Assembly (NCBI RefSeq): GCF_003334765.1 | Contig: NZ_QOWT01000048.1 | Source: Escherichia coli | GTDB taxonomy: Bacteria > Pseudomonadota > Gammaproteobacteria > Enterobacterales > Enterobacteriaceae | Reading direction: 5' to 3' (one strand) | Length of the DNA: 21,358 bases | Shown here: positions 9,001 through 15,000 of the stretch, one piece after another | Numbering within the stretch: position 1 is the stretch's first letter | Layout of the letters: the number at the start of each line of letters is the position of its first letter | Program-made: the position numbers

Positions 9001-12000
9001 CGGGCAATATTACATCCTGAAAGTGCAGCAGTTCATGCACACGGTTCGACGGCTAGTCATTGATCTTCATAATTACCTCGCGTAAAAACGGGGTAAGGAC
9101 GCTCATCCAGCGTCATCTCCACAGGTAATAATTCAACGCCAATTCCAGAAGAATTCGTTAGCGGAAGACGCCGTGATATACGCCCTTTGATCAGCCAGAT
9201 CCTGAGCCATTTGAACAGAAGATTATCATTGATATCGTGCTCCCGGGCAATACGGGCAACAGAATCCCTTGGTTGTAAAGCCAGTTTAACCATTTGAAGT
9301 TTAAACTCATTTGAAAAGTAAGCGCCCCGAGAAGTACGTGGCGTAAGGATTATTTTACAGCCGAGAGGTTCCAGGGCAGCAGTTCATGCACACGGTTTGA
9401 CGGCCAGTCATTGATTTTCCTGATCACTTCCAGTGTTAACATAAACCGCCGTATGCGGAGCCGCATGTACGGTGGTGTGAGAGGACGGCGGGAGTTATCC
9501 CTCCTCCTACTCGATCCCGCTCATGCTGGCGTACCCAGACATGCAGAGTCTCCGGTGTACAGCCAATCTTTGGGGCAATGGAACAAATTACCGCCCATTG
9601 TGAGTCATATTCGCCCTGACTTTCCAGAACCATACGAATCGCCCTATGACTGACTTCGGGGGAAAAACGAGTATTTTTAGTCATCCTGTTTACCTCTTTC
9701 TCTGGAAGGTTAGTCTCCAGGATTTCCGGGACGGTTCAGTTTACGTGTTTTTTGGCTGGTTGATACTGTTTTTGTCATGTGAGTCACCTCTGACTGAGAG
9801 TCTACTCACTTAGCCGCATGTCCACTATTGCTGGGTAAAATCAAATCATTAATATCTCTGCATAACGTGCAGGGGATGCTCCACAGCATTAAGTGCATAT
9901 ATTTATACTAAGTTTAGTCACACAGATTTCGATTATTATCATAAACTTATAATTATATATCCCTTAGTTATTAATAGTCAGGTACATTATATATAATGTT
10001 TCCAATAACTGTACATGTCTGCGCCTGTAAGTGTGGCTGAGGATTCTTGTGTTATCATTCAACATGACAACTTTGCACTATTATCTAAAGGAGGCGCTCC
10101 TTAATATCATAGAAAATAGAAGACAGAATTTTGCATTTCTTGTTTTTTTATCTCTTAGCTTTATAGGGATAATTATTACTGACTCTTTGATATACAGTGT
10201 TTCCTTAAAAGCTGAAGAAGAACTAAAAGTTCATAGTGACAAGGTAATATTTGTTAAATTATATCGACCTAAAACGGTAGGATATATAACAGAAAAATTC
10301 ATTACGGTTAGTAAAGTTCTTTCTTTCTCGAAGAACGCATTCCTCTATGTCAGCGATACACCTTTTTCCGGTGAACTATTTTCGGTGAGCGGAATTGACA
10401 AGCTGGGATTGAACACGGAATATTCTGGAGATTTAAATGATAAGTACAATGGCAATGTTGCTATTGTTAATGAATCTAGTCCGTTTTTCAGTAAGAAACA
10501 AATATTTATTAATGGTGTTCCGTTTAAAATTATTGGTGTCAGATTAAACTCAAAAACGGATTTTCTTGACAGCCTTGGATTGAAAGCAAACCAATCAGAT
10601 GAACACATTTTCATTCCACTGGAAACTATGTTTAAAATGAAACTCGATAACAGAGTCAATGCTGTTAAAATCTTTCTTGATAACATAGTAACAAAGAGAG
10701 ATATAAACAACGTAAAGAGAGTTTTATATGACAATGATATAAGAAAATTCGATATTGTCACATCTTTAAACGCCAAGGAAGCTGTGGACAGAGTGTTAGA
10801 GCGGTTTTCATTACTCACTAACTCTGTATACGTGATATTAACTCTGTCTGCGTCCGTGACATGTTTTATTTTATCGAAACGCAGCTTTTATTCGAGACGG
10901 GTAGAGTTAGCATTAAAAATAATCCATGGTACAGAAAAGAAAGAGATTACAGTTCTAATTATCATTGAGTCATTAATAATGCTGAGCGTATGTCTTTTTA
11001 TTTCACTCATCCATGCAGGAGTAATAATGCATATTATTAAGTATTTTTTAGATGTAACAATAAGTATTAGGACAACAATGATTACAATATCACTTGCCAA
11101 TGTCCTATTGGTGTTTATATTTGCAAATATCATTTTCAGTAGGCTGTTTTTCAGCATTAACCCTGTTAATGCGATAAAAGGAAAGATCGAGTGAGACACA
11201 TATTATACTCATTTCTTGCAATAAATGCTTATCTGTTTTCGACACAGACTCTGGCGAAAGACTGTATCATTGATAATTTCTTTCAGAAAAGCATCCAGTT
11301 TAATTCTTATTCTCTTGATATCGAAGAGTTAGATATTAATAAACATAACAATATAAAAACGATGTTACCAGATATAAATATAGGGTTAGGGCAGTATATA
11401 AACAACAATCAATGGTTCTCATCTATTACAGACAGCCATTTTTATTTATCATTATCCTATAATCTTCTATCGGCTTATGAAGCAAAAATGCAGAATAATA
11501 AATTGGATATTGCTAATTATTTAAAATATATTGAAATGCTTAGTGAGAGGAACAACTACATAATTAATTTGTTCTCGGAAATTATTAACTATAAGATAAA
11601 AAAATCTCACCTGATGTTGATGCTCGAGAGATATAGGAAGCTCAATAAAGAATACGAAATTGCAAAGCGTAAAATGTCAATTGGATTAATATCTGCTCTT
11701 GATGTAGAGATGATATATAATATTTTACAAAAAATCAGGTTTGATATTGATGTCCTTGAGGAGGAGGAAAGTTTACTGTCAGATAAAATCTCGAGAGAAT
11801 ATCATGTTCCTGAGAGTGCAATCCCAGACATTACATATCATAAGTTAAAAGAGTGTAAAACAGCGGATTTCTATACATTATTAGCTGAAAACAAAAAACT
11901 CAAGATTAAGGCTGCTGATATAGATAATGATATAAGGAAACTATCTGAGATCCCATCTTTTTATTTATCATTTGGATTAACACCTAAACAAGGAGGTGCA

Positions 12001-15000
12001 TTGGGTAATATGAGTCTCAGAAAAATGGATTATAGTGCTAGTCTGGGTATCAGCTTTCCTTTAATGGGATTATTTAGTTCTTCAGTAAATCAAAAAGAAA
12101 AGATTATTTCTATGTCTCGAACCAGAAATGAATCATTGAAAGAAAATATAAAACTAGATCTATTGGAAAAAGAAATTCGCCAGAAAATTGATAGATTAGA
12201 GAAAAATCTTGCGATGATGAAAAATGAACTAACTCTGAAAAAAAGGAAAGTTGAGTATATAAATTATCGCTTAAAGAATGGACAAGACGACGTTATCACT
12301 TATTTGTCTAGTGTAGAGAATTTACATGAAACAGAAAATGAATTTCAGAAAATTGGATATGAGATTGAATATTATAGTTTATATCATTATTTTCTTCTGC
12401 AGCACATTTCCAATACAGGGAAAATGTGATAACTACTATGGTGTTCTACATGGAAGTAAAAACGTAAAATATAAGAGTCCTTTTGCAGGGGTTGTAATAC
12501 TTGAGGACATGATTGAAGGTAATGTGGTCACTGTGGAAAGGAAGCTATTTTCTGTCCTGAATCATGAATATACTGCAAAGAAAGATATTGTGGCCATGAA
12601 AAGAGATATGGAAGAGAAAAAACTAGCTAGATTAAAAGGAGTAAAGACACATTCAACCTCTATGTTCTCAAAAGGGTTAATTTCAAGAGAAAGCTTGCAT
12701 GATATAGATGAGAAAATCAGCAATACTGAATTGACTATTATGGGACTGGACATAGAGTCAAAGAATCTGGAACAACTATTAAAGTTGTCATCACCATTTT
12801 TGCATACTCCTTTCATTATTCGAAATATCTTCGTAACAAATGAGCAGTATGTAAATGCAGGCGATGATATAATGTCTGTAGAACTTCTGGATAATTTTTA
12901 TATAGATGTTAAATTCGATCCGGTCAGTATTACAGGGAATATAAGAGACAAGAGAATAAGGTATCGTTCTTTGGTTAATTCTCTAATGGGGACTGCAACA
13001 GTAGTCAAAAATATCCGTGCCAGTGGCGAATCAACTCAAGGTGAAGATACATCAGGTCTGCGATCTATTACGCTGTTAATTGATGGTGACCGGAATGAAT
13101 TGTCGAATCTATTAGATACTGCGTTTGAGATTATAATAGATGATTAGAGTAAAAATACATAAAAAACCTATAGAAAACAGAACCATCCTGAATAATAGCA
13201 CTATTGAGATAAAAGAGGGGTCGTTCAATATTATTACTGGCCCGTCTGGAGTTGGAAAGACTTCACTGCTTAATATTATTGGTCTATTGGATAATGCCTT
13301 TGTTGGAGAGTATGAATTTTTCGGTAAAAAAGTGGAAATAAAAGATAATAGCATCACCACATATATCAGAAGAAAATATTTTGGATTCATCTTTCAGGAT
13401 TCTCTGATTAATGTAAAGCAAAATGTCTCAAGAAATATACTATGTTCTGTAGACTCTCAAAACATAATAGCCGCAAGGGAAAGAATTAATGATATCTTGG
13501 TGTCCGTTGGATTGTCAAATATTAATAATAATGTATCATTTCTCTCCGGGGGAGAAAAACAAAGACTGGCACTTGCTAGGGCATTGATAAAAAAACCCAG
13601 TATACTTTTAGCAGATGAACCTACTGCTAGTCTAGATATAAAGAATAAAAAATTAGTGATGAACATATTATCTGAATACAATAATCAAGGAGGAACAGTC
13701 GTTATGGTAACTCATGATCTTGAACTAATCGATGAGAATATGACTTTAATCCAACTATTAAATACATAGGCTTACAGTTTATGAAGTTCGCTATTGTCTT
13801 ATTGTATTTTTTTGCCTATTATCTCGCAGCAAGAAAAAGACGAGTGAGTCTTTTTTTTACTATTCTTTTATACTCTATCATTTTCTCTGGGATGTATTTT
13901 TCTAGTGGTTTTTTAGAATATTATGGCAGTTCTAATTTATACCTTTCATTTGGATTACTCTGCTTTAATATGATAACCCTTGTCATATATGGTTTCCTGA
14001 GTTCTTATGGGGTACTTGGAGCATGTCTACATGCCCTTTCATTAACCTCATTATCCGCCTTCGGGATGTTTATACCATTAAATCCATTGATTGTTTTATA
14101 TTATGATTTTCCTGACATCTTACCAAGAACAGATATTCCTGTTTTAAATTTATTAATATTAAATCTTATTCCTGCAGTTACATTTAGTCTAAAAATATCA
14201 TTTTTTCTCCGTTCTCTTATGTTATTATTATTTCCGCTAATATGGAAAACACCGGTTAATATAACACATCCCCCTCTGAACATTGTGATTGTACAGGTTG
14301 GCCTTTATTTTAAAAAAGTAGGTGTCAGAGGTAATTTTTATACTGATCTCAATGAATTCGTCAGAAATAAGAAGGTTGATCTAGTTATCCTCTCAGAAAA
14401 TGTTTTTTTCGGTTACAAGAATGATTATATAAAGGAAAGAACTAAACATCTCTTAAAGCAATTAAAAGATAATCGATTCCACTATAAATATGGGATATTA
14501 ATGAATCTTTATGGATATCAAGACATTAATAACGTAGTGTCTGCTTTCTGGCATAAAGAAGAGTTTCTTCTCCACCAAAAAAGCAAATTGATACCTTTTT
14601 TTGAGAAGAAAAGTTTTTATAACTCACCAGAACCATCGACATCACCTTTTCTATATTATAAAAAGAAATATAATGAGCAGGACATCCTGGATTTCAACAA
14701 CATTAAAATGAGTATTCATATATGTTATGAGGGATTATTTCCTGAGGGTGAATCTCGAAGAAAAGATATCTCCATTGTTCAATCCGATTATTCATGGTTG
14801 AGTGACAATCACAAATATGACAACACCCTTATTAATGGAAGCATATTATCGAAATTCTCTGTTTCGCCGAATACCCCTCTTATTAATATTCAAAATTATG
14901 GTGGAACAGTTCTTATAGACAAGAATTGGAAAATTGATATGGACTTATTTAATAGGTCAAAAACGGAGCCTTTTTTATTTACACAGATATGAGTAATGCG

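Follow-up and report, generated by a model that had tools for sequence, protein, structure and literature searches.

The window analysed here, a stretch of 21,358 nucleotides (nt) of Escherichia coli DNA (assembly GCF_003334765.1, contig NZ_QOWT01000048.1), contains five co-directional open reading frames (ORFs) on its plus strand, at positions 10031-11194, 11191-12429, 12326-13147, 13140-13769, and 13781-14992. They almost certainly constitute the aatPABCD operon of the pAA virulence plasmid of enteroaggregative E. coli (EAEC), in the lineage of strain 55989 and of O104:H4, i.e. the system for acylation and export of dispersin (Aap). The first gene, aatP (10064-11194, +), codes for an inner-membrane permease of the MacB/LolC/FtsX type (376 residues, identical to WP_000209218.1 of plasmid 55989p). 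It is followed by aatA (11191-12429, +), which starts with GTG and codes for a TolC-like outer-membrane channel of 412 residues identical to AatA of 55989p; by aatB (12326-13147, +), for a periplasmic adaptor with an N-terminal membrane anchor (273 residues as annotated, identical to WP_002431107.1); by aatC (13140-13769, +), for an ATP-binding cassette (ABC) ATPase of 209 residues; and by aatD (13781-14992, +), for a membrane-bound Lnt-like N-acyltransferase of 403 residues, 100% identical to P0001, a 'dispersin export-associated protein AatD'.

The genes are tightly packed. The GTG start of aatA lies on the TGA stop of aatP in a 4-nt overlap (GTGA, 11191-11194), aatB overlaps aatA by 104 nt when counted from its annotated start at 12326, and the ATG of aatC meets the TAG of aatB in the 8-nt overlap ATGATTAG (13140-13147). 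The segment from aatP to aatC (10064-13769) is therefore, with these overlaps of 4, 104, and 8 nt, a single contiguous co-directional unit, and its genes are annotated aatP, aatA, aatB, and aatC in identical records; the same four genes form a single unit in every system examined by Icke et al. (PMC7943197). An 11-nt gap separates the end of aatC (13769) from the start of aatD (13781). In known Aat systems, the distance of aatD from the stop of aatC is either at most 39 bp or above 1 kb (PMC7943197), and its position here belongs to the former class. An initial annotation of this DNA, made from the sequence alone, had described five coupled AT-rich genes at 10031-14992. The ORFs bear this out, as does their GC content (30-34%, against 42.3% for the whole window and 45-58% for the flanks), and both junction strings occur exactly where that annotation had placed them; it mentioned neither the 104-nt overlap of aatB with aatA nor the 11 nt between aatC and aatD. 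Its start at 10031 does correspond to the first GTG of the longest ORF, but aatP itself starts, according to RefSeq and to the promoter study, at the ATG 33 nt downstream (10064). The start of AatB could likewise be an in-frame ATG at 12338 or 12359 instead of the annotated 12326.

We take the locus to be aatPABCD itself because of the DNA comparison with annotated aat loci. Along its full 4962 nt, the five-gene span shares 99.9% identity with the annotated aatP, aatA, aatB, aatC, and aatD of plasmid 55989p of E. coli 55989 and of other plasmids. The initial annotation was right to match it to the Aat dispersin transporter and to judge the system most likely known. For the slightly longer stretch 9900-14992, identity is 100.0% with pPRO_A-1504-6M-A_1, which comes from a human faecal isolate, and 99.5% with the pAA plasmids of the O104:H4 strains C227-11 and 2011C-3493; this stretch is present in 61 of 5426 complete E. 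coli genomes and is plasmid-borne every time. The whole window matches pAA-type plasmids at 99.6-99.7%. At the protein level, AatP, AatA, AatB, and Aap show no residue differences from their 55989 counterparts, and AatC (S97 for L) and AatD differ from theirs by one residue each. The reading frames of the aat genes are uninterrupted, with no internal stops, and aap and aggR are intact as well. The operon is thus a near-identical copy of a characterised system that is already known, and it brings nothing new in biology.

Transporter, cargo, and regulation

The four transporter proteins have recognisable relatives, and the matches to FtsX, MacB_PCD, OEP, RND_mfp, and ABC_tran speak for the MacB/Lol-like exporter and TolC-like protein that the initial annotation had proposed. 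AatP matches the Pfam families FtsX (E 3.9e-5) and MacB_PCD (E 0.0038). Its hydropathy profile has four hydrophobic segments (residues 20-48, 251-271, 293-329, and 333-368), the first two separated by a loop of some 200 residues, so that its predicted topology is that of MacB and LolC: four transmembrane (TM) segments and a large periplasmic domain between TM1 and TM2. Both halves of AatA match the OEP (TolC) family (E 1.9e-4 and 0.2), and its N-terminus, MRHILYSFLAINAYLFSTQTLA followed by KD, looks like a signal peptide. AatB matches the hidden Markov model (HMM) TIGR01730 RND_mfp (E 1.1e-5) and, weakly, HlyD_D23, and it has one hydrophobic segment (residues 10-34), the N-terminal anchor. AatC matches ABC_tran (E 1.1e-24) and carries the expected motifs: Walker A (GPSGVGKT, residue 34), signature (LSGGE, 135), Walker B (ILLADEP), and H-loop (THD, 191). 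An FtsX-type permease with four TM segments and a separate cytoplasmic nucleotide-binding domain (NBD), AatC, together make up a type VII ABC architecture. These family assignments hold for all four proteins, by distant matches.

Resemblance to MacB and Lol machines is as far as the kinship goes. The top NCBIfam matches of AatC are NBDs of the FtsE, LolD, and MacB types, each under its cut-off: two LolD models score 138.4 (cut-off 307.75) and 115.6 (cut-off 360), and MacB scores 128.2 (cut-off 966). AatP has no LolC, LolE, or MacB match in NCBIfam, its sole match being an ADOP model at 25.4 bits. Since none of the proteins reaches a curated equivalog cut-off, they are not orthologues of MacB, LolD, or LolC/LolE. 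NCBIfam holds no Aat-specific model, and the comparison of Aat with Mac and Lol is made from the DNA identity to annotated loci together with these Mac and Lol cut-offs.

The cargo gene, aap (4487-4837, -), is annotated as dispersin Aap in matching plasmids. Its translation, MKKIKFVIFSGILGISLNAFA followed by GGSGW, has a predicted Sec signal peptide ending in LNAFA, with cleavage between A21 and G22 and a mature N-terminus GGSGW; the site is transferred from the Ala21-Gly22 site measured in Aap of EAEC 042. The initial annotation had singled out this protein as the substrate, with cleavage exposing a glycine, and we concur. Aap lacks a lipobox cysteine and has what characterises an Aat cargo, namely a signal peptidase I signal peptide, an N-terminal glycine, and Gly/Ser-rich first five residues. 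It lies on the same replicon as aatPABCD, upstream, 5.2 kb apart, and on the opposite strand; a cargo gene more than 1 kb from aatPABCD is the commonest class of arrangement (PMC7943197).

A scan of all ORFs of the window revealed no second candidate cargo: aap is the only one in which a signal peptide is followed by A-x-A, a glycine, and then G, S, or N, which disfavours additional cargo within the window. Since one N-terminal glycine was sufficient to make mCherry a substrate (PMC7943197), AatD might nevertheless lipidate further chromosomal or plasmid proteins of the host whose mature form starts with glycine. We regard this as improbable. If AatD did act on any Sec-exported protein of this kind, Aat would be a broader surface-lipoprotein pathway.

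A defining feature of Aat systems is control by an activator of the AraC/XylS family through a WWWWWWWTATC site 21-23 bp upstream of the -10. Upstream of aatP, AATTATATATC (9951-9961, +) matches this consensus and is the counterpart of the AggR-binding site in the aatP promoter of 042; by homology, the hexamer TACATT (9983-9988, +), 21 bp downstream, is the -10, with the same hexamer and spacing as in 042 (PMC6392122 Table 1). The AggR-binding site of the aap promoter, TATTTTTTATC (4972-4982, -), has the same sequence as the characterised 042 promoter (PMC6392122 Table 1). The activator of aap and aatPABCD, aggR (2849-3646, -), is annotated as such in matching plasmids and belongs to the AraC/XylS family. 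Its NCBIfam matches are to AraC-family regulators only, and its identity is taken from the annotation of the matching records and from its translation, which begins MKLKQNIEKEIIK. These elements suggest AraC/XylS control through matching promoter sites. Because both promoters have an AggR site, cargo and exporter are probably co-regulated by AggR, whose gene the window also carries. Over the whole window the consensus is matched 22 times, where 5.45 matches would be expected; clustering in AT-rich stretches may explain part of this excess, so that we give a function to just two sites, the counterparts of characterised promoters. The window also encodes aar (5568-5768, +), an AggR-activated negative regulator of AggR that is annotated in matching plasmids; its coordinates were moved over from L004 by an offset of 103 and fall within the ORF 5550-5768.

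Downstream of the operon, about 85 nt past the aatD stop, a 12-bp inverted repeat (AATATTGGCGTT...AACGCCAATATT, 15076-15106) could form a hairpin acting as a terminator, perhaps a bidirectional one. Scanning for terminators downstream of aatD yielded 3 sites where 2.4 were expected, which is not above chance. Further on, 300-550 nt downstream of aatD and convergent to it, lies a decayed aggR-like 5' fragment (15306-15547, -). Its DNA is 85% identical to that of the aggR leader and 5' end (3412-3664). Stops and a frameshift interrupt its translation (MELKQDIEKEIIK...), and the Prokaryotic Genome Annotation Pipeline (PGAP) leaves it unannotated in a 100%-identical record.

AatD, N-acylation, and alternative readings

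The initial annotation described the last protein as a shortened Lnt homologue that keeps a Glu-Lys-Cys triad, and its motifs, their alignment with Lnt, and the best fold matches all agree with this description. AatD contains LSE (E206), HQKSKLIPFFE (K267 and E275), and ICYE (C315), and it matches the lnt model TIGR00546 over residues 135-343 (E 2.5e-8). In a MAFFT alignment to which Lnt was added, E206, K267, E275, and C315 face E267, K335, E343, and C387 of Lnt; hhalign also pairs HQK267 with YNK335 and IC315YE with IC387YE. The four residues are invariant in 15 of 15 AatD homologues, down to 35% identity. In a homologue of 404 residues the triad falls on E207, K268, and C316, the published numbering of AatD of EAEC 042, and in one of 415 residues the four positions are E217, K278, E286, and C325, the published numbering of AatD of the enterotoxigenic E. 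coli (ETEC) strain H10407. Our comparison with 042 used the homologue P0003, assigned to that strain by its matching length and triad numbering alone, and the published 042 promoter sequence. By alignment with Lnt, E206, K267, and C315 would be the catalytic triad of AatD and E275 the stabilising glutamate.

The predicted structure points the same way. The AlphaFold2 (AF2) model of AatD (predicted local distance difference test 77, predicted template modelling score 0.81) combines a helical membrane domain at the N-terminus with a C-terminal alpha/beta domain. In a Foldseek search of the PDB, its best 19 matches are all Lnt (E 6e-10 to 7e-8), led by 6nwr, 5vrg, and 5n6h (E 6e-10 to 3e-9), and are followed by soluble amidases of the nitrilase superfamily. 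Alignment, model, and structural search together place a Glu-Lys-Cys triad in a nitrilase fold joined to a membrane domain. The far end of the protein differs. Lnt usually has eight membrane helices, the last of them C-terminal to the nitrilase domain. The hydropathy profile of AatD has no segment after residue 155, that is, none C-terminal to the catalytic domain, where Lnt has one at 489-508, and the AF2 model terminates in a beta-strand (398-402).

The function of the system comes from published experiments. In 042, Aap is cut between Ala21 and Gly22 and carries an N-terminal palmitoyl group (+238 Da) only with aatD present; in the aatD mutant Aap accumulates in the periplasm, and AatD E207A is defective (PMC7478709, Belmont-Monroy et al. 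2020). In H10407, secretion of the cargo CexE needs every aat gene and is abolished by deletion of any of them (PMC7943197, Icke et al. 2021). The same study reported AatD-dependent labelling with 17-octadecynoic acid (17-ODYA) and a +238 Da adduct on the N-terminal glycine of CexE, and found AatD alone to be sufficient for acylation in E. coli BL21. Acylation was lost in AatD E217A, K276A (so printed; K278 in the paper's triad list), E286A, and C325A. The N-terminal glycine is essential, as the G20E mutant of CexE loses acylation, and a single one turns mCherry into a substrate; the mobility of Aap shifts in the 042 aatD mutant (PMC7943197). The lipid modification of the substrate that the initial annotation had linked to export has thus been shown for Aap of 042 and CexE of H10407, together with its necessity for secretion through Aat (PMC7478709, PMC7943197). 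These studies, of 2020-2021, described Aat as a secretion system that itself attaches a lipid to what it secretes, and as the first instance of an enzyme N-palmitoylating a protein on glycine (PMC7478709, PMC7943197). A literature search for work on Aat or AatD after 2021 returned only papers on alpha-1-antitrypsin.

In the published model, Sec export is followed by signal peptidase I cleavage and acylation by AatD; AatPC then extracts the cargo, which travels by way of AatB and AatA and ends up displayed on the outer leaflet (PMC7943197). At this locus, AggR would activate both promoters, those of aap and of aatP, through WWWWWWWTATC sites that precede the -10 by 21-22 bp. Pre-Aap would cross the inner membrane by Sec, and signal peptidase I would cut it after Ala21. 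AatD, acting through its Glu-Lys-Cys triad as Lnt does, would load Cys315 with an acyl chain from a phospholipid, probably phosphatidylethanolamine, and transfer this chain to Gly22 at its free alpha-amino group, i.e. N-palmitoylate the cargo. Lipidated Aap would then reside in the inner membrane until extracted by the MacB/LolCDE-like ABC transporter AatP-AatC, which would hand it to the AatB adaptor and, through the TolC-like channel AatA, to the cell surface. Acylation, its requirement for secretion, and dependence on AggR are expected here by analogy with the literature on other alleles. We infer, as the literature does, the phospholipid donor, the extraction by AatPC, and the architecture of the assembled channel.

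Several observations weigh against the assignment of AatD as an Lnt-like acyltransferase of Aap. AatD fails the Lnt equivalog test (33.5 bits with TIGR00546, cut-off 132.9), and its match to the Pfam family CN_hydrolase is weak (E 0.004). With AatD as single query, phmmer failed to pick up Lnt among PDB sequences and returned only chance matches to chlorophyll a-b binding proteins. A profile of the 15 AatD homologues retrieved nothing from PDB sequences at E <= 0.01 and, at E <= 10, only chance matches (dCMP hydroxymethylase, acetylcholine receptor) with Lnt still absent; the distance to Lnt exceeds what such sequence searches can bridge. The hhalign comparison of the family with the single E. 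coli Lnt sequence has an E-value of 0.05 and a probability of 1%. The AF2 model is of low confidence at residues 268-297, directly after K267. On the experimental side, AatD C316A had no drastic defect in 042, and Lnt was reported to complement aatD (PMC7478709), a result disputed by the eLife study (PMC7943197). Finally, the experiments were made on the 042 and H10407 alleles, whose AatD proteins are about 86% and 35% identical to the one encoded here. Because sequence homology is weak, the link between AatD and Lnt rests on the lnt HMM match, the motif alignment, and the predicted fold, which argue for a kinship that is real but distant. Since the equivalog test failed and the C-terminal helix of Lnt is missing, we regard AatD not as an Lnt but as a shortened relative from a sister lineage, Lnt-like in its action. 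This agrees with published phylogenies, in which AatD is a separate lineage (PMC7943197, PMC7478709).

How far do other explanations account for the locus? The genes could encode an ordinary efflux pump of the MacAB-TolC type, or a paralogue of LolCDE, that handles drugs, toxins, or conventional cysteine-lipoproteins, with dispersin as a mere neighbour. The top NCBIfam matches of AatC do include FtsE, LolD, and MacB NBD models, AatP carries the FtsX and MacB_PCD domains, AatP and AatC fall with Lol proteins in published HMM searches and trees, and MacA and MacB are reported as homologues of AatB and AatPC (PMC7943197). However, the equivalog scores are far under the cut-offs (138 vs 308 for LolD, 128 vs 966 for MacB) and AatP lacks a LolC, LolE, or MacB match, the locus is 99.9-100% identical to aatPABCD, CexE secretion is abolished by any aat deletion (PMC7943197), and Aap has no lipobox cysteine. 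The loss of Aap and CexE secretion in published aat mutants rules this reading out, and we give it next to no credence. The initial annotation had named observations that would speak against its own Aat reading, namely a fifth protein without CN-hydrolase homology or catalytic cysteine, or better matches to Mac or Lol orthologues; the cysteine is present, and no MacB, LolD, or LolC/LolE equivalog cut-off is reached.

In an older view, Aat exports dispersin unmodified, as a plain type I-like system, and AatD would be an accessory, non-enzymatic protein and its triad a relic. RefSeq names AatD and AatB just 'dispersin export-associated protein', and the lack of a drastic effect of C316A in 042 (PMC7478709) could be read in this way. 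Against it stand the invariance of the four catalytic residues in homologues down to 35% identity, the loss of CexE acylation upon alanine substitutions, and the aatD dependence of the +238 Da adduct (PMC7943197, PMC7478709). The view is contradicted by the published acylation experiments, and we consider it extremely improbable. It is also very unlikely that the operon is a decayed, non-functional copy, as many of the genes around it are on this mosaic plasmid. The neighbourhood is indeed rich in pseudogenes and remnants of insertion sequences (ISs), including an S6 peptidase, pieces of IS3, IS110, IS630, and IS66, and the aggR-like fragment at 15306-15547. Yet the aat ORFs, aap, and aggR are intact, the Aat and Aap proteins are at most one residue away from those of the pathogenic strain 55989, and the promoter motifs are kept. 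The acylation-plus-export system for dispersin remains the preferred reading, and nothing in the sequence contradicts it.

Surroundings on the plasmid

The aat module is an AT-rich island between mobile-element debris, with IS3-family remnants on its left and an IS66-type tnpA remnant on its right. A group II intron (16228-17912, +, with 17936-17980) has apparently inserted in the latter (ORF 15842-16084). Its D1-D4 domains are matched by Rfam at 16228-16514, and its reverse transcriptase/maturase ORF spans 16560-17912 (TIGR04416, 424 bits); in an identical record, PGAP treats this ltrA as a pseudogene that contains an internal stop, although the ORF reads through in the window. Just upstream of the island, an orphan match to group II intron domains V/VI (9444-9515, +; RF00029, 47 bits) has no intron body adjoining. 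Because its first part (9444-9489) is 87% similar to 17936-17980, downstream of the intron reverse transcriptase, the island has intron pieces on both sides, in 3'-then-5' order. Two directly repeated copies of about 169 bp (1-167 and 9574-9742) show 94.7% identity; most of the right-hand copy falls inside an annotated remnant of an IS3-family transposase, just to the left of the aat promoter region.

Further upstream, two pieces annotated as pseudogenes of an S6-family peptidase, a serine protease autotransporter of the Enterobacteriaceae (SPATE), lie at about 5147-5462 and 7296-9032 (+), with aar and a frameshifted IS630 transposase (5986-6899) between them; the ORFs 7603-7998 and 8336-9085, without NCBIfam match, are parts of this remnant. 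At the left end of the window, a strong Rfam match (140 bits) to the Hfq-binding small RNA STnc490 (729-853, -) sits at the edge of an IS200/IS605 tnpA remnant and adjoins a frameshifted IS110-family transposase (about 1100-2103). Downstream of the intron are a gene of the PD-(D/E)XK nuclease family (18121-18522, +), a serine recombinase (18622-19269, -), and a hypothetical protein of 343 residues (19922-20953, +) without NCBIfam match; these genes appear unrelated to aat.

As a whole, the window belongs to a pAA-type virulence plasmid of EAEC, in the lineage of 55989 and of the 2011 O104:H4 outbreak strain, and it holds the core of the AggR regulon: aggR, aap, aar, and aatPABCD. The aat region corresponds to the CVD432 probe that classically defines EAEC (PMC7943197), which gives the window diagnostic rather than discovery value.

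Comparison with known systems

The closest systems are those of EAEC itself. The pAA plasmids of 55989 and O104:H4 and pAA2 of 042 carry the same genes in the same order, and the plasmids of 55989, C227-11, and 2011C-3493 are 99.5-100% identical in nucleotides to the locus described here. The AggR-type promoters of aatP and aap, the site between A21 and G22 of Aap, and the catalytic residues of AatD are also the same. AatD is about 86% identical to that of the 042 allele; as it is shorter by one residue, its triad is numbered E206/K267/C315 instead of E207/K268/C316.

The Aat/CexE system of ETEC H10407, proposed as the 'lipoprotein secretion system' (PMC7943197), has the same five components and the same Glu-Lys-Glu-Cys residues in AatD, and in its cargo, too, a Gly/Ser-rich N-terminus comes after a signal peptidase I site. 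In both systems the activator is of the AraC family, CfaD/Rns in H10407 and AggR here. They differ in that AatD of H10407 is about 35% identical (P0019), the cargo is CexE and not Aap, and the gene neighbourhoods are not the same. The initial annotation had listed this relative under the name CexPABCD, which the papers cited here do not use; in them the ETEC system, too, goes by the name Aat, with CexE as its cargo.

At a greater distance, Lnt (E. coli b0657; PDB 5N6H, 5VRG, and 6NWR) shares with AatD a membrane domain followed by a periplasmic nitrilase-fold domain, the triad and stabilising glutamate at aligned positions, and the rank of top structural match. In both cases the acyl group goes to the free alpha-amino group of an exported protein that has been processed. 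The two are only 18% identical in the alignment, AatD has 403 residues and Lnt 512, and their acceptors differ: the N-terminal glycine left by signal peptidase I for AatD, the diacylglyceryl-cysteine produced by Lgt and Lsp for Lnt. The transporter, in turn, is akin to the type VII ABC machines MacAB-TolC and LolCDE, which have a four-TM FtsX-type permease with a large periplasmic domain like AatP. AatC as a separate LolD/FtsE-like NBD, AatB as adaptor, and AatA as TolC-like channel are components of this same kind, and in all these systems the substrate is picked up from the periplasmic side. Unlike MacAB-TolC and LolCDE, Aat combines its own outer-membrane channel with a dedicated acyltransferase and a protein cargo acylated on glycine.

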